This document shows, piece by piece, positions 11,882 to 61,300 of a DNA stretch of 64,000 nt (position 1 is its first letter; each line of letters starts with the position of its first letter). The DNA comes from an uncultured delta proteobacterium (GTDB lineage: Bacteria; Myxococcota; Myxococcia; SLRQ01): positions 1 through 64,000 of the forward strand of contig CAVSGM010000001.1 in the NCBI GenBank assembly GCA_963727485.1, written 5' to 3'. Position numbers and translations under genes: made by a program. Below the pieces are notes generated by a model, which saw only the letters and a program-made list of their open reading frames with translations, searched no databases and was not told the origin of the DNA.

Positions 11882-13183
11882 CTAGTCGGTGGCGGCGATG
11901 GGGTGCTCCACCATCAGGTGCGCCTCGGGCACCGGGGGAAGCACCACCCCGAGCACCGGCTCCGGGGACAGATCGTAGGCCCGCATCCCGTGCTCGCCCA
12001 GGTCGAGGCCCAGGTGCTCCTCCTCCTCGCTGACCCGCAGGCCCATGACCTTGTCGATGGCGAAGAGCAGGGCGTAGGCGCTCACGAAGGCGAACGCCCC
12101 GACCACCGCCACCCCGACGAGCTGGTCGAGGAGCTGCCCCGGCGAGGCCAGCGAGCCGAACACCCCCACCGCCAGGGTCCCGAACACGCCGTTGACCAGG
12201 TGCACCGGCACCGCGCCCACCGGGTCGTCGATGCGCAGCTTGTCGAGGACGACGACCCCGCCGACCACCAGGAACCCGGCGATGGCGCCGACCAGCACCG
12301 CGGCCAGCGGCCCCATGACGTCGGCGCCGGCGGTGATCGCCACCAGCCCGGCGAGGATGCCGTTGAGCACCATGGAGAAGTCGGGCTTCTTGGACATCGT
12401 CCAGGAGGCCAGGGTGCTGGTGATCGCCCCGGCGGCGGCGGCGAGGTTGGTGGTCACCAGCACGTGGGAGACCATGGCCGGGTCGGCGGAGAGCACCGAG
12501 CCCCCGTTGAACCCGAACCAGCCCAGCCAGAGCATGAACACCCCGATGGTCGCCAGGGGCATCGAGTGGCCCACCACCGGGTGGACCTTCCCGCCGGCGT
12601 ACTTCCCCAGGCGGGGCCCGAGGCGCAGGGCGCCGGCGAGCGCCGCGAACCCGCCCACGGCGTGGACCATGGTCGAGCCGGCGAAGTCGTGGAACGGGTG
12701 CGAGAGGGTGTGGAGGAAGCCGCCGCCCCAGGCCCAGAACCCGGCCACCGGGTAGCACAGCGCCACGAAGATCACCGAGAACACCAGGAAGCTTGAGAGC
12801 TTCACCCGCTCGGCGACGGCGCCGGAGACGATGGTCGCCGCCGTGGCCGCGAACATCCCCTGGAAGAGGTAGTCGGTCCAGTAGGTGAACGACCCGTTGT
12901 AGTGGGCGGTGAGCCCGCCGGCGGGCACGTGGAGGCCGAAGCCCGCGAAGCCGAGGACCCCGCCGGCAAACGCCTTGCCCGGGTACATCAGGGAGAAGCC
13001 GATGGCCGCGTAGGTGAGCAGGCCGATGGCGGGGATGAGGGTGTTCTTGAAGAGCACGTTGACCGTGTTCTTCGAGCGCGTGAGCCCGGCCTCCAGGGTG
13101 GCGAAGCCCAGGTGCATCACGAACACCAGGGCGGTGGCGATCATCATCCAGAGGTTGGCGACGGTGAAGGTGACCTGCTCCAT
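11882..13183 (-). CDS. amtB: Ammonium transporter
   Basis: GFATLEAG, FQGMFAATAATIVSGAVAER, DFAGSTMVH, LWLGWFGFNGGS, IDDPVGAVPVH. Confidence 0.97.
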   Translation of the reverse strand: MEQVTFTVANLWMMIATALVFVMHLGFATLEAGLTRSKNTVNVLFKNTLIPAIGLLTYAAIGFSLMYPGKAFAGGVLGFAGFGLHVPAGGLTAHYNGSFTYWTDYLFQGMFAATAATIVSGAVAERVKLSSFLVFSVIFVALCYPVAGFWAWGGGFLHTLSHPFHDFAGSTMVHAVGGFAALAGALRLGPRLGKYAGGKVHPVVGHSMPLATIGVFMLWLGWFGFNGGSVLSADPAMVSHVLVTTNLAAAAGAITSTLASWTMSKKPDFSMVLNGILAGLVAITAGADVMGPLAAVLVGAIAGFLVVGGVVVLDKLRIDDPVGAVPVHLVNGVFGTLAVGVFGSLASPGQLLDQLVGVAVVGAFAFVSAYALLFAIDKVMGLRVSEEEEHLGLDLGEHGMRAYDLSPEPVLGVVLPPVPEAHLMVEHPIAATD

Positions 13184-13196
13184 GACGCATCACGTC

Positions 13197-13212
13197 AGCA
13201 CGGAGCGTGCCA
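13197..13212 (-). promoter_or_regulatory. sigma54 -24/-12 promoter of amtB
   Basis: - strand reads TGGCACGCTCCGTGCT against the consensus TGGCACG-N4-TTGCW, with correct GG/GC spacing. Confidence 0.75.
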
Positions 13213-13276
13213 GGGCGGATCCGGGCGTTTTTCGCCCGTTTCGTGCGCCTTCCGGCCGCCGCCGCCCCCGGGCTGG

Positions 13277-13312
13277 TGCCCAGGATCGGGGCAGATGCCC
13301 GCGCCTTGGGCA
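13277..13312. promoter_or_regulatory. Two tandem NtrC-like enhancer palindromes
   Basis: TGCCC-N7-GGGCA at 13277-13293 and 13296-13312, about 100 bp upstream of the predicted amtB transcription start. Confidence 0.6.
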
Positions 13313-13372
13313 GGGCCGCGCCGCGGCGGGAAGCGCCCCCCTGATCCGATGTGCGGTAGGCCGATCAAGAAA

Positions 13373-13400
13373 TTTACAGGCCCCCAGGCGCCGGTATCCT
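13373..13400 (+). promoter_or_regulatory. sigma70-type promoter of the methyltransferase (probably leaderless)
   Basis: TTTACA-N16-TATCCT, 8 nt before ATG 13409. Confidence 0.5.
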
Positions 13401-13408
13401 CGGTGCCG

Positions 13409-14296
13409 ATGACCCGCCGTGACGACGCCCGGACCCTCCAGGCCACCCGCCTCGCCCGCCTCGCCCGCCGCGACGAGCGGGCCCTCGACGCGGCCCTGTC
13501 CACCGGCCCCCTCGCCGACGCCGCCCGCCACGGCGGCGACAGCTGGCGCCTCCTCCAGGGCGACAGCCTCGAGCTCCTCGGGGCGCTGCCGCCGCGCACC
13601 GTCGATCTCGTCTTCGCCGACCCGCCCTACAACCTCTCCAACGGCGGCACCACCTGCCAGGCCGGGCGCCGGGTGAAGGTGGACAAGGGCGCCTGGGACG
13701 TGAGCCACGGCGTCGACGCCGACCAGGCCTTCCACCGCGCCTGGCTCGCCGAGGTCCAGCGGGTGCTCAAGCCGTCCGGGACCGTGTGGGTCAGCGGCAC
13801 CCAGCACGTGATCTTCCAGCTCGGCTTCGCCATGCAGTCGCTGGGCTTCCACCTCTTGAACACCGTCACCTGGTTCAAGCCCAACGCGGCGCCGAACCTC
13901 GCCTGCCGCTTCTTCACCCACTCCAGCGAGCTGCTCATCTGGGCGGCGCCGGCCCGGATGAAGCCGCTCCCCCACCACTTCGCCTACCAGGAGATGAAGG
14001 CGGAGAACGGGGGCAAGCAGATGCGCGACCTGTGGACCCTGCCCACCCCGGGCAAGCGCGAGAAGCTCCACGGCAAGCACCCGACCCAGAAGCCGCTGGC
14101 GCTCCTCGACCGGGTGATCCGGGCGTCGACCCACGAGCGGGCCCTGGTGGTGGACCCGTTCAACGGGTCGGGGACCACCGGGGTCGCCGCGGTGGCCCTC
14201 GGCCGGCGCTACCTGGGCATCGAGCGCGAGGCCGGGTACCTCGAGCTCTCGGCCCGCCGCCTCGAGGCGCTGGACGCCCACGCGGCGACGGGCTGA
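13409..14296 (+). CDS. N4/N6 DNA methyltransferase, beta class, DpnA-like
   Basis: FADPPYNLSNGG...VDKGAWD, KPNAAPNL, HPTQKP, DPFNGSGTT; motif order DPPY before FxGxG. Confidence 0.92.
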   Translation: MTRRDDARTLQATRLARLARRDERALDAALSTGPLADAARHGGDSWRLLQGDSLELLGALPPRTVDLVFADPPYNLSNGGTTCQAGRRVKVDKGAWDVSHGVDADQAFHRAWLAEVQRVLKPSGTVWVSGTQHVIFQLGFAMQSLGFHLLNTVTWFKPNAAPNLACRFFTHSSELLIWAAPARMKPLPHHFAYQEMKAENGGKQMRDLWTLPTPGKREKLHGKHPTQKPLALLDRVIRASTHERALVVDPFNGSGTTGVAAVALGRRYLGIEREAGYLELSARRLEALDAHAATG

Positions 14297-14388
14297 CGCG
14301 GCCTACCGGCTCCGGTCGCCGACCATCACCCGGCCGCAGGTCTCGTGGGCCTGGCCGAGGTAGGGGTTGTGGACGCCGTGGCCGGCCT
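14287..14388 (+). repeat. 102-bp direct repeat, left copy (att-like)
   Basis: Matches 19698-19799 except A14296 vs G19707; offset 5411 bp. Confidence 0.95.
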
Positions 14389-14571
14389 GGAGGCGCCGTT
14401 GGCGGCCGACGTCGTACGCCCCCGAAATTCCTGCGCGTTGCCGAGGCGTCAGCATCCGCGGTACGTAAGGAAATGCCTGTCTACCCGTAGGTGACACCCT
14501 GTCAGGTGGTGACCACCGGCCGCCGAACCCCCGGGTGGATGGGCAACGCATGGCAGACCACGGGAGGGTCG

Positions 14572-17455
14572 ATGAAGACGGCCGAGGTTCTGGACAGCTA
14601 CGCCGACGGGGATTCGGATCAGCTCGCGGCGGACAAGGTCGATGAGGTCAGCAACCTGCGGCTCCCTCGGCCCGTGCTGATCCATGAGATCGCCGAAGCC
14701 CTGGGGTCGCAGAGCTACGTCGCTGCCGCCCTCGCCCCGATTCGCCCTCCGGCCTACGCATGCATCAAGCTGCTCCTCGACGCTCCCGACCACCAGCTGC
14801 CGGCCGCTGGTTTCCGGGAGGCCGTGGTCGCGACCACCGACGGCATGACGGACCGTGTTGCTGCCGGGGAGGGCCTGGTGGGCGGCAAGGAGTACGGCCT
14901 CTACCGGACCATGCTTCGGGCGGCCTACGAGGATGATGGCCAGATTGACAGAAGCGAGGCCTTGCTCCTCGAAGCCCTTCGTCGAGAGCTGGGGATCTGG
15001 ACGCGAGAGCACCTGCTCCTGGAGCACCATCCGGAAGTTCGTCCACACTGGGACGACGGCCGGGCCTTCGAGCGGGCCCGGAACCAGCTGCTCACCAGCG
15101 GGCTGGTGCTGACCCTGGGCGACGACTACGTGATGCCCGACGAGGTTGCCACCCAGGTTCGTCAGGCCTGGGGCATCGCGCTCGAGGACGCTGCCTACGT
15201 GCGGCTCCTGGACCGCCTCACGGTCAACCAGCTTCGCGCCGTTCTCCAGGCAACGGGGCTGCCCTCGAGCGGGAGCAAGGAAGAGCGGATCGCCCGAATC
15301 GTCGCTGGCTTCGTGCCACCAGCCGAGGTCCTCGACGTCCTCCATATCAACGACGTCAAGAGCCTGTGTCGCGACCTCGGCCTTGCGGTGAGCGCCGCGA
15401 AGGCCGACCTCATCGACGGCGTGGTCGAGGCCTTCGAGATCGGTCGCGACCTCCAGGAGGCGTCCGGCGAGCCGGCCGATGCCCCGCTGGTAAAGGAGGA
15501 GAAGCAGCTCGAACCCGTCGCCTTCCGTCGTCTCTTCGACCAGCTGACCGTCGACCAGCTCTACGACCTCCTGACCACCGACCGGCTGAAGCGGGCCGGC
15601 TCAAAGGCCGAGCGAATCGAGCGGCTCCTGGGTGGCCCCCTCGGCGAGACCGCCCTTCTGGGCGAGCTGCGGCGCTCCGACCTGGTGAAGACCTGCCGGC
15701 GCCTGGGCGTCCCCGTCTCCGGCGTCAAGGCCGAGTTGGTCGAGCGGCTGATCGAGTGGGCTCGCGAGCCGCTGCGAACTGACGAGGGCGAAGTGGCCTT
15801 GTCGCCGCGGCCCGATTCCGCCGAAGACGGCAGACCTCGCCGAGCCTGCACCCCCCAGTCCCCCCACCGACGTTTCGCCACCGCCCAGCCCTCCGCCGGC
15901 CGGCATGCACGACATCCAGACCGACTTTCCGGATTTGCCGAGAGATGAGCAGATCGTGCTGTCCCTGCTCCGTGAGGCTCGGTCGTTGACCGAACGCGAC
16001 GTGAAGCGGGCGGCGGAGCGCCATCGCCTGGGCTGGTTCCTGATCAAGGCGCACATGGCCGACCTCGTGGCGCGACTGCGGCAGCAGGATCGGGGTCCGG
16101 TGCGGATCCGCAGCGCCGGCGCCACCAACATCTACGAGTGGGTGGACGACGCCCCGAGCAAGCCGGAGCGGGACCAGAAGAGCTCGGCGCGTGATCTCAT
16201 TGACGCCCTGCGCCACGGTGTCGTGCCGGATCGACACCTGGGGCAGCTCATCGTTGGGCAGCAAGCGGCTCGGACCTACCTCCAGAAGCAGCTGTCGGAG
16301 ACGCCGTCAGGGCGCTCGGAGTTCAAGTTCATCCGTGGGCCCTACGGAAGTGGCAAGACCTTTCTGTGCTCCTGGCTTCGGGAGCAAGCGTTCCAACTCG
16401 AGATGGCGGTGGCCACGGTGCGGATTGGCCCCGACCAGCCAATCTCCGATTTGCCGATCTTCTTCTCCGGGTTGGTCAGCGGCCTGCGGACTCCCGAGAA
16501 GCGAGACGCCTCGGCACTTCCGGACGTGCTCGAGTCGTGGCTCCTCGAGGTCCAGCGCAAGGCCGCGAAGCTGGAGGGTCTCGATCCCCTCGAATCCCGT
16601 GGAGAGAGGTCGCCTCACGAGCCTGGTCGAGGCCCGGATCTCCGAAGAGCTGGCTCGGCTCGGAGGCATGGACCCCGGGTTCGCGCCGGCCCTGGGGGCC
16701 TTTTACCGGGCGCGGGTCGATGGTGACCTCGAGACCGCCAGCGTCGCCCTCGGCTGGCTTCGCGGTAGCCGCTCCCTTCCGTCGGCGGCGTTGAAGGCAA
16801 TCGGGGTGAGGGGATACCTCGAGAGCGATCAGGTGCTGCCGCGCCTCAAGGCCCTTCTCGAGGTCATCCGTCGCGGGCGCCTGAACGGCCTGTTGATCCT
16901 AGTGGACGAGCTCGAGCTGATCCGGCGCATGCCCCATGCCCGACAGCGGGAGGAGGCCTACGAGACCCTGCGCCTTCTCATCGACGAGACCGGAGAGAAC
17001 AACCTGCCGGGGTGCCTGCTGGTGTTCACCGGGACCGACGCCCTCTTCGACGACGATCGCTATGGGATGGGGAGCTACGAGGCCCTCCTCAACCGGGTGT
17101 CTCCGCCGGCGCTTCCGGGCGGACTGGTGAGCATGCGCCAGCCGGTCATTCGCCTGGAGCCCCTCGATCGTGACAAGCTCCTCGACGTCGCCCGGAGCGT
17201 CACGCGACTCCACGGCGACGCCTACGGCTGGCCTTCTGGCGAGCGGGTGGGCGACCCTGCCCTGGAGCGGTTGGTGGACTGTGGACCTCCTTCGGAGAGG
17301 GTCAGATCAGCCGGCTGCCAAGGCCGATCCTCCGGGAGCTCGTTCACGTGCTCGATCTCTGCGAGGAGAACCCCGGGATCACCGCCGAGAGCTGCATGCG
17401 CGCACCCTCCGCCGATCTGGACCTGGCGGCGGCCGCAGACATCCTGGACGGGTAG
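14572..17455 (+). CDS. TerB-like + four SAP-like motifs + BrxD-like (DUF2791) P-loop ATPase, probable single fusion with about 3 frameshifts
   Basis: GGGAGG RBS before ATG 14572. DDGQIDRSEALLLEALRRELGI; four SAP-like motifs; IDALRHGVVP, Walker A GPYGSGKT, WLRG, Walker B LLILVDELE, LVFTGT, SYEAL. Ends TAG 17453-17455. Joined from ORFs 14491-15948, 15905-16726 and 16191-17783. Confidence 0.78.
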
Positions 17456-19663
17456 ATGGCGCCCGCCAACGATCTCTCGGACGCCTCCATCCTGGCATTC
17501 AGACCTGGGTGAAGGAGCAGAGCTGGCCGGACCTCACCGCTGTTCAGAAAGCAGCGATGCCCGTGATCCTCGCCGGGCGGCACTGCCTGGTCGAGGCGCC
17601 GACGGCCGGTGGCAAGACCGAGGCAGTGCTCTTCCCGGCGCTGACCCGGGTCGCCGAAGCGCAGGGTGCCGGGGTTCGGATCCTCTACCTGGCGCCGCTT
17701 CGGGCATTGCTCAACGACCTCGAGATCCGGGCTCGGGTCTACGCTTCCGCCTGCGGCTTGCACGCGTTCAAGTGGCACGGTGACGTGAGCCAGCGCTCCA
17801 AGCTGGACAGCTTCCATATGCCGCCGGAGGTGTTGCTGACCACCCCGGAGTCAGTGGAGGCGATCCTCCTGAGGAAGGCGGGGTGGGAGCGCTTCTTCCA
17901 GGGCCTTCAGATCATCGTGATCGACGAGGCCCACAACTTCGCCTTCGGCGAGCGCGGCCATCACCTGTTGGCGCTTCTCGAGCGCCTGGAGAGCCGGATC
18001 GGTCATCGCAGCGAGCGAATCGCGATCACGGCCACGATCGGGAACCCCGTGGCGATGGCACGCTGGCTGGTGCCCAAGGGCACCGAGCCGGCGGAGCGGA
18101 TCTCCGTGTCGGGAGCGACCCCACGACGAGACTTCAGCCTCCGGCTCTTTGACGAGGCGGGCGATAGCCCCGATGGCGACACCGGGCCCAGTGCCACGGT
18201 TCGTCGGTTTGCCTTCTTGGCGAAGGAGCTCCGAGGACGGAGATCGATCGTCTTCGTGAGGTCGAGAGCCGGCGCCGAGGACCTGGCGAAGGTGTTCCTG
18301 AGGGCAGGCAGGGGGCCAAGCGCCCTGCGGGTCCGGACCCATCACTCGGCGGTGAGTCGCTACTTCCGCGAAGAGGCGGAGGCGCTGATCAAGACCAAGT
18401 CGGAGACGGGGCTGGATGCCATCCGTAAGCACCTCGACCCTCGAGCTGGGCATCGACATCGGGGCCCTGGATTGGTCGTCCAGCTCGATGCCCTGTCGAG
18501 TCCAGCGGCCTTTCTGCAGCGGATCGGCCGGACTGGCCGGCGCCCCGGCATGCCTCAACGCTTCCGGGGGCTATGTCTCGACGTGGAGGCCTTGCTCCAG
18601 CTGGCCGCAACGGTCAGCCTCGGCCTCGAGGGGAGGTCGGAGGCGCTCCGATTCCGGTCCAGGGCGTTCCACATCCTGGCGCACCAGACCATCTGCCTCG
18701 CCTGCAGGAGAACGGTGTCACCCTGGACGGGGCTTGGCGAGTCCTCAAGGGGCGGGCTCCTTCTCTGGGATTCCGCCAGGCCGAATACGAAGTCCTGATC
18801 CATCACATGCTGCAGGAGGACTACCTGCGATGGGACGGCCCCATTCTCCTCGTGGGTGAGCAGACCGAGAAGCGGTTCCTGGGGGCTGGCTGGCGCCGGC
18901 TCTTTGCCGTCTTCGACTCGGCACCGCTCTATGAGGTCTTCCATGGGGAGGCCCAGGTCGGCACCCTCGATGCCGGCTTCGTGGAGGGCTTGGAGGTTCC
19001 GTTCAACTTCATCCTCGCCGGCCGGCCCTGGACGGCCACGTCGGTCGATCCGAAGTCGAGAGCGGTGAGGGCGAAGCCCACTCGCAACGCAGAGCCGCCG
19101 CGCTGGGACAGTTACGGCGGGCTGGATGTGCCGCCAGAGACGGCCCGCCGGGTGGGAGAGATTCTGGGTGGCGCGGTTGCGGTGCCCGACCTGGGGTCCG
19201 ACGCGGAGGCCGCGGTGCGACAGGCGATCGACGACGCCCTGCCGTGGCGCCCCGGCCAGATCGTGGTGGCGCGGCGCGGTGCTTCGGTGCTGCTTCGCAC
19301 CTTCGCTGGCGACAAGATCAATCGAACCCTCGCCAAACTCCTGGAGGCCGAGGGGCTTATCCGGGTGAGGGCGAACTACAGGGAGCTTCGCGTCGACCAT
19401 GCCGGCAACGACCTCGACCAGGTCGTGCCCATGCTCGAAGACGTGCGACGGCGTCTGCGAGAGGCACCAGCGCCCGCGACACGGGTTTCTCAGGCGCTCG
19501 CGCTCACGGTGCGACGCTTCCCTTCTCGCTGTTCGCACAGTGTCTACCGGACGACCTTTTCGTTGCCGCCCTCGCGGACGAACGGCTGGACGCAGAGGGC
19601 GCGGCGGCGCTGCTCGAGGCCGCGACGGTGGAGATTCTGGTCGACGACGCGGCGGCTCCCTGA
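17456..19663 (+). CDS. Lhr-like/BrxHI-like DEAH-box SF2 helicase (about 5 frameshifts)
   Basis: ATG directly after the ATPase stop. LTAVQ, APTAGGKTEA, APLRALLND, TTPES, IDEAH, TAT, HHSAVS, STSTLELGIDIG, QRIGRTGRR, and C-terminal FILAGRPW. Confidence 0.85.
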
Positions 19664-19697
19664 CCTCCGGGACCGCGGGCGGCGGGGGGGGGCGAGG

Positions 19698-19799
19698 GAC
19701 GGGCTGGCGCGGCCTACCGGCTCCGGTCGCCGACCATCACCCGGCCGCAGGTCTCGTGGGCCTGGCCGAGGTAGGGGTTGTGGACGCCGTGGCCGGCCT
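19698..19799 (+). repeat. 102-bp direct repeat, right copy (contains the 3' end of the DUF3347-like gene)
   Basis: Matches 14287-14388 with one mismatch. Confidence 0.95.
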
Positions 19800-20220
19800 C
19801 GACCCAGGTCGCCTTGACCATGGGGCAGTAGAGGACCCGGGCCCCCTTGGGGTGCGCGGTGATCACCCAGACCACCAGGTGCTTGCCCAGGGCCAGGAAC
19901 GCGGCGCGGGCGGCCTTCAGGTCCTTGGCGGCGGCGAGGGCCCGGGCGTCCTCGGCGATGTGCCCGGGGAGGCTGCCGTAGCGGGCGGCGTGGCCGGCGG
20001 CGGTGCGCACCGGCTCCAGCTTGGCGCTGGCGGCGACGATGGCCAGGGCCGCGGGCGCGACGCCGTCGAGACGGTCGTGGGCCAGGGCGTGCTCCACCAC
20101 CAGGTACTGGGCCAGGATCGGCGCCATCTGCCGGTCGAAGACCGGGCGGGTCGGCGCCGCCAGGGCGGTGGTGGCGAGGACGGCGGCGAGGGCTGGGATC
20201 ACCAGGCGTACGGGCTTCAT
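19714..20220 (-). CDS. Exported DUF3347-like (putative metal-binding) protein
   Basis: Signal peptide; YLVVEHALAHD, ARAAFLALG, YCPMVKATW...NPYLG...TCG. Confidence 0.75.
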   Translation of the reverse strand: MKPVRLVIPALAAVLATTALAAPTRPVFDRQMAPILAQYLVVEHALAHDRLDGVAPAALAIVAASAKLEPVRTAAGHAARYGSLPGHIAEDARALAAAKDLKAARAAFLALGKHLVVWVITAHPKGARVLYCPMVKATWVEAGHGVHNPYLGQAHETCGRVMVGDRSR

Positions 20221-20263
20221 CACGGTCACTCCCTTCGGATGTTCGAGCCAACCGACCAGAGGG

Positions 20264-20279
20264 AGCATCAATCGTGCCT
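20264..20279 (-). promoter_or_regulatory. sigma54 -24/-12 promoter of the DUF3347-like gene
   Basis: - strand reads AGGCACGATTGATGCT with correct GG/GC spacing, upstream of a GAAGGGAG RBS. Confidence 0.6.
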
Positions 20280-20459
20280 AAGGGGGTGCCTTCAGGACCC
20301 CGGGGCCTCCGCGCGTCGCCGAGCCACCGCCCGGGAGGCGCGTAACGAACCGGGATGCCTATTGTTTCTTGGAGCGCCGGCCTCGCCGAGCGGTCCGTCT
20401 CCGCGAACCGGTGCCGTCGTCCGGTTTGGTCGCGCCCGCGCAGGTGTCGCGTGACGCGC

Positions 20460-20534
20460 GTGACCTGCGCGTCCCCCGCGCGTGACCTGCGCCCCCCGCG
20501 TGTGACCTGCGCCCCCCGCGCGCGTGACCTGCGC
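20460..20534 (+). repeat. Intergenic tandem repeat, 4 x GTGACCTGCGC
   Basis: Copies start at 20460, 20482, 20502 and 20524. Confidence 0.85.
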
Positions 20535-20558
20535 CAGGTGCGCGCAGGCTGCGCCGCC

Positions 20559-22631
20559 TCACTTCACCTCGAGGACGTGGACGCCGTCCCAGTCCTCGGG
20601 CGGGGGCGCGGCGGCGAAGGCGCGGCTGCGCGCGGCGAGGACCCGGGCGGGCCCGTCCCCGGGCACCGTCTCCAGGCAGGCGTCGAAGGCGGCGGCGGCG
20701 GCGGCGAAGCGCCGGGCGAGGTAGGCCTCGCGCCCCTCGGCCCAGCGCGCGAGCAGGGTCTGCCAGGCGGGCCCCAGGCTCCCGGCCCGGCCCAGGACCT
20801 CGTAGACCCGCACCCCCTGCAGCTTGCCCTTGACCCGGAGCAGGTCCAGCTCCCGGAAGGCGAAGCGCTCGGCGCACCCGGCGAGGCTGTCCTCGGTGAC
20901 CATCAGCCGGCTGCCGTAGACCTTGTTGGCCCCCTCGAGGCGCGAGGCGAGGTTCACCGCGTCGCCGATGACCGTGTAGTCCTGGGCCTGGCTGGAGCCG
21001 ATGTTCCCCACCACCACCTCGCCGGTGTTCACCCCGATGCGGCAGTCCACCGGCGGCTTCCCCGCGGCGACCCACTCGGCCCGGAGCCGGTCCACCGCCG
21101 CCAGGTGGTCGAGGGCGGCCAGGATCGCCCGGGCCCGGTGGTCGGCCTGGGGCAGGGGCGCCCCGAAGAAGCACATCACCGCGTCGCCGGCGAACTTGTC
21201 GAGGGTCCCCCCGGCGGCGACGATGGGCGCGGTCACCGCGTCGAAGTAGGTGTTGAGCAGGGAGACCACCTCGGCGGCGCTGCGCCCCTCGGAGAGCGAG
21301 GTGAAGCCCACCAGGTCGCTGAAGAGGATGGTGAGCTCGCGGGTCTCGCCCCCGAGGCCGAGCTTGTCCGGGTGGGCGAGGAGCTCCTCGACCACCGCCG
21401 GGGCCATGTAGCGCTCGAAGGTGGCCTTGATGGTGTCCCGCTGGCGCAGGCCCTCGGTCATCTCGTTGAAGGCGGCGCCGAGGCGGGCGAACTCGTCGCC
21501 GCCGGTGACCGCCACGTGGGTCTCGAGGTCCCCGGCGGCGACCCGCCTGGCCCCGGCCTCCAGCGCCACCAGGGGCGCCGAGAGGCGCCGGGCCAGCAGC
21601 GCCGCGGCGATGAGGCTGGCGAGGAAGGCGAAGAGCGCGATGGCGGCCATGGCCAGGCGCAGGCGCCGGCGGAAGCCCCCGAGCTCCCGGTCCAGGCTCT
21701 TGAGGAGCACCGCCCGCCCGATGACCACCCCGGCCTCCTTGAGGGGGGCGACCTCGGCGAGCCAGGGGGCGCCGCCGAAGGGCACCTCCTGCGGCGCGTT
21801 GCGGGCGTGGGCGGCGAGGCGGCCGGCGACCCGGCGGACCTCGGGGAGGCGCAAGGCGAGGTCCGGGGAGAGATCGAAGGCGTCGCCCTCGTGGTCGGCC
21901 ACCGCCACCAGGGCCCCGCTGGCCAGCTCGAGCTGGGGGCGGATCCGGGCGAGCGGCTCGCCGACGATCATGGCGCCGAGGACCTGCCCCTGGGAGGTCA
22001 CCGGCTCGGCGAGGACCAGGAAGAGCCCGGTGGCGCCCTGGGTCGGGACCACGTGGTCGGCGCGGAGCCGGGTCCCCGCCGCCGGCCACAGGGCCACCGC
22101 CTTGGCGCCGGCGAGGGCCTGGCGCACCACCGGGAGCCCCGAGAGGTCGGCGCCGTAGGCCCTCCGGTCGGCCCGGGAGAAGAGGAGCACCCCCTGGTGA
22201 TCGAGGACCGCGAGCACCGGGTAGTCGTGGAAGAGCGGGAGGTCGACGCTGGCGAAGACGTCGTGGGTGTCCCGCACCGCGTGGCCGTCGTCGCCGCCGC
22301 CGAGGCCCAGGGCGTCGTCGGAGACCCGGGTGAGCGAGAGCTGGCTTCTGAAGACCTGGTCGGAGACCGTGGCCTCCACCACCTGGTCGAAGGCCCGGAC
22401 CCGGGCGGCGAGGATGTCGTGGAAGGCCGACAGCGCCCCGTGGAAGTCCCGGGTCACCCGGTCCCGGGCGGCGGTCTCGGCGGCCCGGTTGGCGGCGACC
22501 AGCGCCACCACCAGCACCAGCGCCGCCACCAGGACGAAGAGGAGGCGCAGCCGTGCCCCGAAGCTCATCCCCCGCCGGGGGGCGCCCCGCCGGCGGCCCG
22601 CATCCGCGGGGGCATCGGTGGCGGCGCGCAT
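20559..22631 (-). CDS. Membrane class III adenylate/guanylate cyclase (sensor domain, HAMP, cyclase, TPR-like tail)
   Basis: Two TMs, DEFARLGAAFNEM HAMP, LFSDLVGFT, DKFAGDAVM, RIGVNTG, DYTVIGDAVNLASRLEG, VKGK. Alternative start 22568. Confidence 0.93.
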   Translation of the reverse strand: MRAATDAPADAGRRRGAPRRGMSFGARLRLLFVLVAALVLVVALVAANRAAETAARDRVTRDFHGALSAFHDILAARVRAFDQVVEATVSDQVFRSQLSLTRVSDDALGLGGGDDGHAVRDTHDVFASVDLPLFHDYPVLAVLDHQGVLLFSRADRRAYGADLSGLPVVRQALAGAKAVALWPAAGTRLRADHVVPTQGATGLFLVLAEPVTSQGQVLGAMIVGEPLARIRPQLELASGALVAVADHEGDAFDLSPDLALRLPEVRRVAGRLAAHARNAPQEVPFGGAPWLAEVAPLKEAGVVIGRAVLLKSLDRELGGFRRRLRLAMAAIALFAFLASLIAAALLARRLSAPLVALEAGARRVAAGDLETHVAVTGGDEFARLGAAFNEMTEGLRQRDTIKATFERYMAPAVVEELLAHPDKLGLGGETRELTILFSDLVGFTSLSEGRSAAEVVSLLNTYFDAVTAPIVAAGGTLDKFAGDAVMCFFGAPLPQADHRARAILAALDHLAAVDRLRAEWVAAGKPPVDCRIGVNTGEVVVGNIGSSQAQDYTVIGDAVNLASRLEGANKVYGSRLMVTEDSLAGCAERFAFRELDLLRVKGKLQGVRVYEVLGRAGSLGPAWQTLLARWAEGREAYLARRFAAAAAAFDACLETVPGDGPARVLAARSRAFAAAPPPEDWDGVHVLEVK

Positions 22632-49772: not shown

Positions 49773-51497
49773 ATGAACGGCCTCTGTCAGCAGTGCCAGG
49801 TCTACTACCCGATGCCCGAGGACTTCGCTCGCGGCGTCCCCTACGCGTGCCCTCAGTGCCAGACCCTCCTGGTGCCCTATGCGGAGGCCGCGTCGCCGGT
49901 GGCGGTCCAGCCCTCCGGGCCCCCCGCCGGGACCCCGCCCCCCGACGCCGGGGGCTACGAGATCTCCGCGCCGATGGACGCCGACGCCCCTGACGACATC
50001 ACCCTGGTGGGCCGGGCTCCCGACGGCTTTCGCCAGGGCCCGGTGGCGCCTCCGCCGGAGGATCCCGGGGCCCGGGTGCGGGTCGTCTGGTTCCATCCCC
50101 ACCCGTCGCCGGAGGTCGCCGCCGCCCGGGCCGAGCTCGCCGCCGAGGAGCCCAAGACCCCGGCCGGGCCGGTCTCGCCCCTGCCCCCCGTCGGCGCCGG
50201 CGTGCCCGATGACCCCTGGCTCTCCGGGGAGGCGACCCCGCCCTCGCCGGGTCCGACCCCCGCCGCGCCCGAGGCCGGGAAGCCGACCACCTTCGTGCTC
50301 CGCGGCGCCGGCGAAGGCGTCGCCCGGGAGGAGCTCCCCCTCGACCTGCCCAAGCGATCGGCGGCGCCCCCGGCGGCCGCCGAGCCCTCGCCGCGGCGGA
50401 CCCAGGAGCCGGTGCCCAGGTTCCGTCAGATCACCACCGCCGCCACCCCGGTGCGCCGGCGCGGGGCCGCGGCGATCTGGGCGGTGCTGGGTTTCCTGCT
50501 CCTCGGCGGGGCCGGCGCCGCCTGGTACTTCACCGGCCCCGGCGCCGAGACCTGGCAGCGCCTCGCCGGGAGCGGGGCCCACCCGGCCGCCGCCCGCGAG
50601 CGCCCGGCGTCGGACCCCGCCGCGGCGGACGACGCCCCCGGCGCCGCCACCTCCGGCACCGCCGCGCCCGAGGGGACCCCGGCCACCGGGGGGGCCGCGC
50701 CGGCCGGGGGCGCGCCCGGCCACCCGGCCGCCGCCCAGCCCGCCCACGGCAAGCCGGCGCCGACGGAGCCCGCCGCCCGGACGGCTCCGGCGCCCAAGGG
50801 CGGGGCCACACCCGCCAAGGCCAAGGCCACGGTGAGGCACGCGACCAAGGCCGCCGCCAGGCCCAAGGCCGCCGCCCGGCCCAAGGCCGCCGCCCGGCCC
50901 AAGGCCGCCGCCAGGCCCAAGGCCGCCGCCAGGCCCAAGGCCGCCGCCAGGCCCAAGGCCGCCGCCAGGCCCAAGGCCGCCGCCAGGCCCGAGGCCGCCG
51001 CCAGGCCCAAGGCCGCCGCCAGGCCCAAGGCCGCCGCCAGGCCCAAGGCCGCCGCCAGGCCCAAGGCCGCCGCCAGGCCCAAGGCCGCCGCCAGGCCCAA
51101 GGCCGCCGCCAGGCCCAAGGCCGCCGCCAGGCCCGAGGCCGCCGCCAGGCCCAAGGCCGCCGCCAGGCCCAAGGCCGCCGCCAGGCCCAAGCCGAAGGCT
51201 GCCGCGGACCCGGCGCCCGGCGGCGACGCGCTCTCCGAGGTCCGCACCGGCAACCTCCTCTTCGGCCAGGGCAGGATTGACGCGGCCATCTCCGCCTACC
51301 GGGCGGCGCTGAAGCTCGACCCCAACAGCGGCCTGGCGCACCGGGGCCTCGGGGTCGCCTACGCCAAGCTCGGCCGAGCGGCCGCCGCGGCCAAGGAGTA
51401 CCAGCGGTATCTCGACCTGGATCCGAACGCCCCCGACGCGCCCCAGGTGCGGCGCATCGTCAAGGCGTACTACGACCAGACCGGGAAGACGCCCTAG
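49773..51497 (+). CDS. Membrane protein: N-terminal Cys4 zinc ribbon, Pro-rich linker, TM, AAARPK repeats, C-terminal TPR
   Basis: CQQC...CPQC; TM IWAVLGFLLLGGAGAAWYF; TPR AISAYRAALKLDP...AHRGLGVAY. Confidence 0.8.
   Translation: MNGLCQQCQVYYPMPEDFARGVPYACPQCQTLLVPYAEAASPVAVQPSGPPAGTPPPDAGGYEISAPMDADAPDDITLVGRAPDGFRQGPVAPPPEDPGARVRVVWFHPHPSPEVAAARAELAAEEPKTPAGPVSPLPPVGAGVPDDPWLSGEATPPSPGPTPAAPEAGKPTTFVLRGAGEGVAREELPLDLPKRSAAPPAAAEPSPRRTQEPVPRFRQITTAATPVRRRGAAAIWAVLGFLLLGGAGAAWYFTGPGAETWQRLAGSGAHPAAARERPASDPAAADDAPGAATSGTAAPEGTPATGGAAPAGGAPGHPAAAQPAHGKPAPTEPAARTAPAPKGGATPAKAKATVRHATKAAARPKAAARPKAAARPKAAARPKAAARPKAAARPKAAARPKAAARPEAAARPKAAARPKAAARPKAAARPKAAARPKAAARPKAAARPKAAARPEAAARPKAAARPKAAARPKPKAAADPAPGGDALSEVRTGNLLFGQGRIDAAISAYRAALKLDPNSGLAHRGLGVAYAKLGRAAAAAKEYQRYLDLDPNAPDAPQVRRIVKAYYDQTGKTP
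50850..51191 (+). repeat. Coding tandem repeat, 19 x 18 bp (AAARPK/E)
   Basis: GCCGCCGCCAGGCCCAAG units; K-to-E variants at units 8 and 16. Confidence 0.95.
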
Positions 51498-58322: not shown

Positions 58323-61300
58323 ATGCTCGTTTCCTGCCCTTCGTGTCAGGCGAAGTACAACATCGATGACGCGCGCATCCCCGCCTCGGGGCTGAAGCTC
58401 AAGTGCCCCAAGTGCACCACGGTGTTTCCGGTGCAGGGGGGTGCGGGCGGCGGCGGTGATGTGCCCCTTCCCGGTGCCGGTGCCCCAGCGGGTGGCGGCG
58501 CCCCGGGTGCCGTGCCCCTCCCGGGCAACGCGCCCCCGGCCGGCCCGCCTCCGGGGGCCGCCGCGCCCCCCTCCGGTGCCGTGCCCCTCCCGGGCAACGC
58601 GCCCCCCGCCGGCCCGCCTCCGGGGGCCGCCGCGCCCCCGTCCGGCGGCGTGCCCCTCCCGGGTGGCGCGCCCCCCGCCGGCCCGCCTCCGGGGGCCGCC
58701 GCGCCCCCGTCCGGCGGCGTGCCCCTCCCGGGTGGCGCGCCCCCCGCCGGCCCGCCTCCGGGGGCCGCCGCGCCGCCGTCCTCTGGCGTGCCCCTCCCGG
58801 GTGGCGCGCCCCCCGCCGGCCCGCCTCCAGGGGCCGCCGCGCCGCCGTCCTCTGGCGTGCCCCTCCCGGGTGGCGCGCCCCCCGCCGGCCCGCCTCCAGG
58901 GGCCGCCGCGCCGCCGTCCTCTGGCGTGCCCCTCCCGGGTGGCGCGCCCCCCGCCGGCCCGCCTCCGGGGGCCGCCGCGCCGCCGTCCTCTGGCGTGCCC
59001 CTCCCGGGCGGCGCGCCACCCGCCGGCCCGCCTCCGGGGGCCGCCGCGCCGCCGTTCGGCGGCGTGCCCCTCCCGGGCGCCCCCGCCGCCGGCGGCGCCG
59101 ACTACGGCAACGTCGACCTCGGCGACGCCCCGGACAGCGGCGCCACCCGGGTCTACGCCGCGCCCCCGTCCATGCCCGAGTTCGGGAACGTCGACCTCGG
59201 CGCCGACGATCCGGCGCCGGCCCCGGACGGTGGCGCCGGCTTCGATCCCTTCTCGGGCGTCGATCTCCCCGACCCCGGCGCCGCGCCCCCGGCCGCCCCG
59301 CCAGTCGCCGCGCCCCCGGTGCCTCCGCCGGTCGCCGCCCCGCTCCCCCCGCAGGCGCCGGGCTCCGGCTTCGCCTTCGGGGACGACGGCACGGACGACC
59401 TCTCGTTCGATCCCGCCGCGGCCCCGACGCCCTCGGCGCCGCCCCCGGGCGACGACCTCTCCTTCGATCCCACCGCGGCCCCGGCCCCGGACGGCGGCGA
59501 CCTCGAGCTCGACCTCGGCGACGCCCCGGCCCCGGCCCCCGCGGCCCCCGCGGGCGGGGGCGGCGACGACCTGGAGATCCTCGACTTCATCGACAACGAG
59601 TACCAGGCCGCCAAGGACTCGGGCGCCAAGGTCCGCGAGGCCGGCCCCGAGAAGTACCGGGTCCGCCGGAAGAGCGGGAAGACCTTCGGCCCCTTCGAGC
59701 CGGAGGTGGTGGTCACCATGCTCAAGGAGGGCCAGCTCCTCGGCAACGAGGAGGTGTCCACCGACGGCAACACCTGGAAGCCCATCGGCTCGGTGCCCCA
59801 GTTCGCCGAGGCCATCCAGGCCCTGATGGAGGCCCCGTCGCTGGGCCACGACGCCCCGATGATGGGGGCCCTGCCTGAGGGCGCCGACGACCTCGACGAC
59901 ACCGACACCGTGGCCCCCAAGGGCAAGGGCTACGGGGTCTACGGGATGTCGGCGGCGGTGAAGAGCACCACCGCCGCCCGGACCGCCCCGAGCAAGGTCT
60001 TCCTGGCCAAGCTCAAGAAGCGCTGGCCCCTGGTGACCGCCGGCGTGCTCCTCCTGGGGATCCTCGGCTTCGGCATCTACCTCGGCTTCACGCCCTACGG
60101 CTACTTCGCGTACAAGCTGGTGTTCACCCCCGGCGCCGGGGGGCACAACAAGCCCACGAGGGAGCTGCTCTCCGACGCCCGCAAGGGCATCGCCGACGAC
60201 ACCTTCGCCGGGTACACCCAGGCCCTCGAGAGCGCCAAGGCGGCGCTGGCGGCCAACGGCGACGACGTCGAGGCCCAGAGCCTCTACTGCCAGGCGGCCT
60301 TCTACCTCCAGCGCCTCTACGAGGGCCACAGCGTCCAGGTGAAGCGGGCGCTCGGCTACATGCACGACCTCTCGGTCACCAGCAAGGACTACCCGCCCTA
60401 CCTCAAGGCGAAGATGGACGAGGCCCTCCTCGAGGGCAACGAGGCCGCCGCCCGGCCGGCCCTGGTGGCCCTGGTGAACAAGCACCCCAAGGACCTCGAG
60501 GCCCTCTACCTCCTCGGGGCCTCGTACTTCCACGCCCGGGACGCCAAGCACGCCACCGCCTGGATCGACAAGATCCTGGTCGTCGATCCCACGAACGCCA
60601 AGGCCTTCCACGCCGAGGCGTTCATCCACACCATGCTCAAGACGCCCGAGGCCCGGGACACGGCCATCGCCTACTTCCAGAAGGCCCTGGACGCGAACCC
60701 CCAGCACCTCTCCTCGGCCCTCGAGCTCGCCCACCTCTACCTGGTGAACGACGACCCGAACCTGGCCAAGGGCGAGGCCGCGTTGGATCGGGTGGCCGGG
60801 GACGCCTTCAAGACCCTCTCGCGGTCGGAGCAGGCCCGCGCCGACTACCTGCGCGGGGTCCTCGACAGCCTCAAGGGCCAGGTGGCCAAGGCCGCCAAGG
60901 TCTTCGACCAGGCGGTCACCCTCGATCCCAAGTCGGCGTTTGGCCGCACCGCCTACGGCGAGTTCCTCCTCAAGCGTCACCAGTACGAGAGCGCCGCCAA
61001 CCAGCTCGCCGCGGCGGTGAAGCTCGCGCCGGGGAGCATCCGGGTCGCCGGCCTCCACGTCGAGGCGCTCATCCGCTCCGGCCGGGCCCTCGACGCCACC
61101 CAGGCCCTCAACGCCCTCAAGGGGCGGGCGCCGGCCAACGCCCAGGTGATCTTCCTCGAGGGCCTCCTCGCCCACAGCAAGGGCGACGACGACGTGGCCC
61201 AGGGCCTCTACGCCAAGGCGATGAAGGCCGACCCCCACTACTACCGGGCCGCCCTGGCGCTCGGGAACCTCTTCCTCGAGGAGCGGCGGGTCAAGGAGGC

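Follow-up and report, generated by a model that had tools for sequence, protein, structure and literature searches.

A two-gene cassette encoding a SAP-headed BrxD-type ATPase and a BrxHI/Lhr-type helicase, a likely relative of the Shango and BREX anti-phage systems

The Shango system, for which background along with that on TerB is given in 10.1101/2022.05.11.491447, 10.1101/2022.11.11.516204 and 10.1101/2025.09.30.679545, consists of SngA, a protein with TerB_N, TerB and TerB_C domains, the ATPase SngB and the helicase SngC. A homologous pair of enzymes, the BrxD–BrxHI dyad, is found in type-2 BREX (Pgl) systems; section 24 of PMC12839542 classes BrxD as an ORC-Cdc6 protein and proposes that it loads BrxHI, the same article portrays BrxD as free of additional domains for DNA binding or regulation, and the 2026 survey of BREX calls the role of BrxD uncharacterized. 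In CglI-type systems, according to PMC5861437, a DEAD-Z1 motor drives a nuclease. The locus described here, a two-gene cassette, is likely a relative of Shango and BREX and a member of neither; it bears on how Shango and the BrxD–BrxHI dyad of BREX-2 work.

The cassette is located in a window of 64,000 nucleotides (positions 1 to 64,000 of contig CAVSGM010000001.1), which is the whole stretch of DNA analysed. The first gene (14572..17455, forward strand; 960 aa with indels at 15816, 16593 and 17278 set aside) encodes a predicted winged helix, four SAP motifs, a linker, a second predicted winged helix and a BrxD-type AAA+ ATPase; the second (17456..19663, forward strand; about 736 aa with seven indels set aside) begins directly after the ATPase stop codon and encodes a BrxHI/Lhr-type SF2 helicase. 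Both lengths were calculated by hand from the coordinates and the corrected indels. The assembly as given contains no intact first gene and carries ten frameshifts over the two genes; six-frame translation and codon-position GC reveal frame shifts that recur across both, with the codon-position GC switching frame near 15800. All ten indels, of which three affect the first gene and the other seven the helicase gene, are corrected by short-read contigs from public runs, and the first gene is therefore delimited as above. The preliminary description of this DNA had proposed that one indel near 15805 separates two open reading frames of a fusion of roughly 960 aa, with the frame of ORF 15905 open upstream through a Pro-rich stretch, and had pointed to the reads across 15780-15830 as the place to look. 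Six-frame translation confirms the open upstream frame, and the joining indel is a spurious extra base at 15816, not at 15805: the X2 contig 15293-15966 bridges the site and lacks the base, which is also absent from the X1 contig, extending just 30 letters past the site, one short of the bridging rule. The two runs come from different studies, that of X1 being possibly the one to which the source sample belongs.

The fusion is not peculiar to this genome. Among 7,993 scored candidates, there are 99 longer homologs, mostly of 940-990 aa, all of which combine SAP with PF10923, and the Walker A pattern is matched in 97 of these. A GTDB scan yielded 75 loci, 55 of them of the fused family, in Myxococcota, Acidobacteriota, Bacteroidota, Gammaproteobacteria, Planctomycetota, Clostridia and other groups. 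The N-terminal part and the ATPase form one ORF in 49 of the 50 loci with an N-terminal match, the exception, L001, having a stop near the start. The helicase gene is present in 53 of the 55 loci (in the other two, the contigs end), directly downstream and on the same strand in 52 of the 53, with a convergent orientation in L028. The preliminary description correctly named the fusion to the ATPase; it omitted this obligatory helicase partner and the direct repeats that flank the cassette. No third conserved gene accompanies the pair in the 55 loci. The fused protein of L028 (P0037) has an extra N-terminal domain of ~90 aa that appears winged-helix-like by eye, and two PF10923-type ATPase genes occur in tandem at L075:6475-8913. 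In three loci, a gene for a DEDDh exonuclease with a BRCT domain (PDC-S48) immediately follows the helicase gene (L006:12739-13998, L010:13068-14354 and L022:5573-6406) and is possibly an optional effector there.

The N-terminal part of the fused protein, hereafter the head, contains four SAP motifs, all within ORF 14572 and all on the forward strand. Motifs 1 and 2 make up a first tandem pair (15208..15435; units at nt 15208-15312 and 15331-15435) and motifs 3 and 4 a second, homologous one (15535..15759; units at nt 15535-15633 and 15658-15759). A Pfam search gives SAP (PF02037) 71 bits summed over the repeats (cut-off 23.9, E 5e-20), two stretches passing singly, and the structural model shows four helix-extended loop-helix units in pairs, with pLDDT of about 85-97. 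Pfam and the model agree on the two tandem pairs of SAP/HeH motifs that had been proposed from the letters. SAP1-2 are net acidic (9 K+R, 12 D+E), and only SAP3-4 are basic. DEK is a eukaryotic chromatin protein. When the N-terminal model is searched with Foldseek, its tandem SAP comes out on top, at prob 0.98 over about 116 columns, with a weak E of 0.08-0.26 and a TM of 0.35-0.39 to the target, the likeness being in the arrangement of the pair only.

The SAP pairs are preceded by an N-terminal domain (14572..15180, forward strand) that is net acidic (20 K+R, 34 D+E). In the AlphaFold model of residues 1-397 (pLDDT 89), a helical cap and a predicted winged helix (aa 47-203), which carries a helical insert, come before the two SAP pairs. 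Structure comparison of the N-domain (VIA) places the N-half of TFIIH p52/Tfb2 on top, at Z 9.1 over 104 aligned positions (rmsd 4.9) and Z 8.2 over 93 (rmsd 2.8), the former within the range that helical models can reach through common arrangement; many generic winged helices follow with Z of 5.5-7, and the ENT domain matches the helical insert with Z 6.2. PDB sequence searches with the profiles of this domain and of the second winged helix gave chance matches only. The insert includes a helical hairpin (14872..15021, forward strand) with the conserved acidic residues E120 and D126 and the invariant E129, which had been called TerB-like. A full TerB domain can be rejected: Pfam TerB matches neither the window protein nor any of 48 N-domains at E up to 1, and this is a single hairpin inside a winged helix, a fold that the preliminary description left unnamed. 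No TerB structure stands among the best 50 rows of the structural comparison, though some may rank lower. The head likewise has no Pfam match to TerB_N or TerB and no PADLOC match to SngA, for which true SngA proteins score well above the cut-off. The alignment of the hairpin to the TerB region of SngA is marginal (hhalign 20, shuffled maximum 19.4). Nevertheless, among 18 repeat proteins hand-picked for their match to the hairpin (240 profile matches, of which the best 150 were listed and 50 scanned), 8 pass the Pfam TerB cut-off on the C-terminal half of TerB and 17 list ENT, so that "TerB-like hairpin" is fair as the name of a half-TerB/ENT-like motif, not of a domain. Four related proteins of ~320-340 aa (P0330, P0336, P0341 and P0372) contain an N-terminal HTH followed by three half-TerB/ENT-like repeats.

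Downstream of the SAP pairs lies a low-complexity linker of 48 aa (15760..15904, forward strand; 33-72 in homologs, median 47), which holds the spurious base 15816 and has pLDDT under 50 in the model of the homolog P0003. The full-length model of P0003 (pLDDT 86.5, pTM 0.59) proceeds from this disordered linker to a domain of winged-helix topology and then to the ATPase. The second predicted winged helix (15905..16144, forward strand) has the topology H-S-H-H-S-S in this model, where the domain is seen within the full-length fold and its atlas leads stay under 0.9; the topology is in keeping with the possible winged helix that had been noted ahead of the ATPase. Pfam TerB_C does not match this domain. 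A profile comparison with 8 SngA and 7 PglZ sequences aligns it to the C-terminus of SngA, i.e., TerB_C (hhalign 35, shuffled maximum 16; 79% probability, 37 columns), and to that of type-2 PglZ (hhalign 24, shuffled maximum 14.5). For split-type heads, the respective scores are 32 and 34, with a shuffled maximum of 17.3. In the split locus L150, a head of this kind is a separate gene (518 aa) that precedes the genes for the ATPase (433 aa) and the helicase (742 aa), and in each of the two trees described below these enzymes branch as the sister group of the fused clade. Given that in nine proteins the chain stops directly behind the second winged helix and that L150 is split there, the natural seam lies at this point, just as it does in Shango and PglZ-BrxD. 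A Shango-shaped operon of three genes, the first two of which became joined, is the probable origin of the fused gene, as suggested by this one split locus and by FastTree support values.

The ATPase (16175..17455, forward strand; Walker A at 16337-16360) belongs to the ORC/Cdc6-like BrxD/SngB family. In the Pfam search, the downstream ORF pieces match PF10923 (BrxC_BrxD) and then, from 17456, a DEAD/Lhr-type helicase; in the model of P0003, the ATPase fold is nearest to AAA+/Cdc6/ORC structures. PADLOC ranks BrxD and BrxHI (the latter with E 1e-93) above SngB and SngC for the window pieces, and a full-length homolog scores 253 bits for BrxD vs 195 for SngB; the two ATPase pieces of the window, at 95 and 122 bits, are below the NCBIfam BrxD cut-off of 350. 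In FastTree trees of both enzymes, which sampled 13 and 9 family members along with 8 SngB and 6 SngC, the fused family forms its own group, sister to BrxD/BrxHI of BREX-2, and falls outside the SngB/SngC clades. The window's genome (G000, 93% complete) contains a single PF10923 gene. At L056:7335-9344, a BREX-2 BrxD carries an N-terminal NERD nuclease domain, another exception to the description of BrxD as free of extra domains; and in L060, L061, L064 and L071, which are nested among BrxD in the tree, a beta-helix (NosD-like) protein replaces PglZ upstream of BrxD(-BrxHI).

The cassette resembles Shango in the stand-alone order of head, ATPase and helicase without a methyltransferase, with homologous enzymes, i.e., a DUF2791 ATPase followed by a DEAD/DEAH helicase, in the apparent likeness of its second winged helix to the TerB_C end of SngA, and in the split form L150, which has three genes in the same order. 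It differs from Shango in that TerB_N and full TerB are missing, the head is a winged helix with four SAP motifs and is fused to the ATPase, and both enzymes are nearer to BrxD/BrxHI than to SngB/SngC. With type-2 BREX, the cassette shares the BrxD–BrxHI dyad, which gives the best profile matches, is the sister clade in both trees and shows the same tight gene coupling; moreover, PglZ, which is encoded upstream in BREX-2, ends in a winged helix similar to the second one of the cassette. However, no linked PglW, PglX, BrxC/PglY or PglZ was found among 133 neighbours of 47 loci, and six additional domains precede the cassette ATPase, in contrast to BrxD as portrayed in PMC12839542. The term "SAP" does not occur in the main text of that article, and the literature searched, mostly outside subscription journals, yielded no description of a SAP-BrxD fusion or of SAP combined with Z1/DUF4420.

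Analysis of the genomic context reveals two direct repeats of 105 bp that enclose both cassette genes. The left copy (14287..14391) contains the stop codon of a methyltransferase gene and reproduces the 3' end of gene 19714-20271, and the right copy (19698..19802) is contiguous with the intact gene 19714-20271, so that the repeats duplicate the end of a flanking gene. They are 98% identical and are the only two full copies in the genome. The cassette has 68% GC vs 72-73% in the flanks. No empty site or excision joint between the repeats was found in the contigs of four runs, an absence that is uninformative; a flanking repeat was obtained in 2 of 41 other carrier loci, and gene 19714-20271 does not adjoin the methyltransferase gene in the short loci of three relatives. 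The upstream gene itself (13415-14296) encodes an orphan, CcrM-like N6/N4 methyltransferase. As a part of the system it was rejected: it lies outside the repeats and is kept in three of four cassette-less relatives of the family, and no N6/N4 methyltransferase recurs beside the homologs in 55 loci.

The distribution is very patchy. The N-domain was detected in none of 60 relatives, and the module formed by the winged helix and four SAP motifs in 13 of 401 genomes of the phylum (the window's genome included) and in 1, 3 and 2 of 401 genomes in three other phyla, each count including the seed genome. Viral contigs yielded no relative with either alignment, and plasmids no match to the split-type head. 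A scan of neighbours covered 133 of 167 chosen ORFs, the nearest ones of 47 loci, and detected no BREX core gene or SngA. PADLOC matches were found near 23 of the 47 loci, or 19 after four loci with generic matches are dropped, which is a raw count; they include CBASS, Wadjet, Cas9, R-M and a defence RT. Altogether, the absence from 60 relatives, the carriers in multiple phyla, the direct repeats and the 19 of 47 loci with PADLOC matches are suggestive of a defence-like ecology.

The same head is reused outside the fused family. PADLOC has no match for it. As a stand-alone protein of 400-430 aa, the winged helix-4xSAP module is common in metagenomes and has named members in Myxococcota; a longer version of about 600 aa includes an additional domain and a zinc ribbon. 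The count over 44 stand-alone loci excludes two duplicates, the window itself and three further loci (a fused, a weak and a repeated one). DUF4420 is found in 33 of 36, a Z1 helicase in 27 of the 29 whose upstream DNA is long enough, and a C5 methyltransferase in 14 of the 16 that span at least 7 kb; none of the three occurs in the 55 fused loci. In loci L090-L137 (e.g., L090:3761-8242 and L107:2892-7863), the conserved operon runs Z1 helicase, DUF4420, module, with the C5 methyltransferase and Vsr nearby, and this arrangement is a candidate for an undescribed restriction-like system. The stand-alone loci, and these only, are similar to CglI/NgoAVII-type restriction and Mza systems in combining a DEAD-Z1 helicase-like motor with a nuclease-family gene and a C5 methyltransferase. 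They differ in having DUF4420 as the nuclease-family gene and the winged helix-4xSAP module as the third gene; the MutL/MORC and AIPR genes of Mza do not recur among their clustered neighbours. Finally, 10 of 12 aligned proteins contain after the module a motif that we take to be PD-(D/E)xK-like. Single-gene fusions of a head with 2 or 4 SAP motifs to a PD-(D/E)xK-like domain include L151:6186-8096, L152:5670-7172, P0324, P0331, P0353 and P0261, the last of which also ends in the second winged helix.

The preliminary description viewed the head as a multivalent nucleic-acid sensor attached to the ATPase. This prediction is plausible and gains from the reuse of the module with restriction-type motors and nucleases, with DNA anchoring being equally compatible. 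For the intact two-gene cassette as a whole, the reading to which we give slightly better than even credence is that of an anti-invader motor working on its own, whose SAP head would hold on to DNA so that the ATPase could load the helicase there or switch it on. Starting from the observed architecture, gene pairing, patchy spread, lack of linked BREX core genes and reuse of the head, the steps of such a motor can be proposed. The two SAP pairs would contact the DNA backbone largely irrespective of sequence, with a possible bias towards DNA that is bent, branched or unprotected. Docking of the variable head onto the ATPase might fall to the second winged helix, which is part of a separate upstream protein in Shango, in BREX-2 and in the split form and is tethered here. 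The ATPase would oligomerise on DNA and load the helicase; unwinding or displacement of proteins could then stall invader replication or expose invader DNA to host nucleases, no nuclease being detected in the cassette itself. Several observations count against the motor. There is no linked nuclease or methyltransferase, so that the effector step and the discrimination of self from non-self are unexplained; the N-domain and SAP1-2 are acidic, the DEK match is weak, and the p52 Z score possibly reflects a common arrangement; conservation of the head is close to that of the ATPase (0.61-0.78 vs 0.71), unlike what a fast-evolving phage sensor would show; and in 28 of the 47 loci, the scanned ORFs include only non-defence neighbours.

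With the targeting head tethered to the ATPase, this natural two-protein version allows the idea of a helicase loader to be tested with two purified proteins. The recurrence of the head in restriction-like operons and in fusions to nucleases suggests a reusable bacterial DNA-recognition module of SAP repeats that is missed by current defence profiles. A broader and tentative proposal, which we regard as rather less probable than not, joins these observations: the winged helix-4xSAP module may be a portable head, not described so far, by which bacterial immune systems recognise DNA and which serves at least three machines, the BrxD/BrxHI motor, the restriction-like Z1-translocase/DUF4420 system and directly fused nucleases; and the small winged helix that ends SngA, PglZ and the head may be a universal adaptor that provides BrxD-type ORC/Cdc6 ATPases, in trans or in cis, with a winged helix missing from their own sequence. 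On this proposal, the two-gene fusion would be a minimal, directly reconstitutable model of Shango/BREX-2 helicase loading on foreign DNA, one that reads the shape of DNA and not its methylation.

SAP motifs occur in Ku70 and other repair proteins. The cassette might be a mobile module for DNA repair or damage tolerance, its SAP head locating damaged or branched DNA for the Lhr-type helicase to remodel. The helicase has sub-threshold matches to Lhr and to ligase-associated DEXH repair helicases, FAN1 appears beside p52/Tfb2 among the structural neighbours of the head, there is a weak match to ku70 (E 0.08), and many loci lie amid housekeeping genes. This alternative is nonetheless unlikely, the closest profiles being BrxD/BrxHI and SngB/SngC, the distribution very patchy and the head reused in restriction-like operons. 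Another possibility, which we consider distinctly unlikely, is abortive infection, whereby the head, on sensing a DNA structure or a phage protein, would set the ATPase and helicase loose to drain ATP or wreck host replication, leading to arrest or death. Two NTP-hydrolysing enzymes without a nuclease or self-marking enzyme are compatible with such a role, and the acidic N-domain and the conserved acidic hairpin could bind protein or metal instead of DNA; against it, the other partners of the head are DNA-cutting machines. It is improbable, too, that the cassette is an accessory acting in trans for BREX or restriction-modification encoded elsewhere in the genome and not a self-standing defence. 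The sister relationship of both enzymes to BREX-2 BrxD/BrxHI and the lack of an effector would suit an accessory, as would the PglZ-domain matches elsewhere in three of five other carrier genomes (one weak, none typed as BREX-2), but PglZ is absent from the window's genome (93% complete) and from the other two carriers, and none of the 133 neighbours is a BREX core gene.

That the ten frameshifts mark a pseudogene in decay, or that this organism has two genes here instead of a fusion, as the existence of natural split forms might suggest, is very improbable and was rejected, given that the short-read contigs correct all ten, the N-terminal part and ATPase form a single ORF in nearly all homolog loci, natural split forms are divided behind the second winged helix and not at 15816, and the linker length fits that of homologs. 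The assembly is error-rich at window positions 12800-21000, where dozens of substitutions, many of them T for C, are common to independent short-read contigs; other frameshifts in the window therefore deserve caution. No clear methylation motif is apparent by eye among these substitutions. Low-complexity tblastn matches also revealed Pro-rich tandem repeats at window positions 50737-51225 and 58515-59060, with spacings of 18-bp and about 69-bp.
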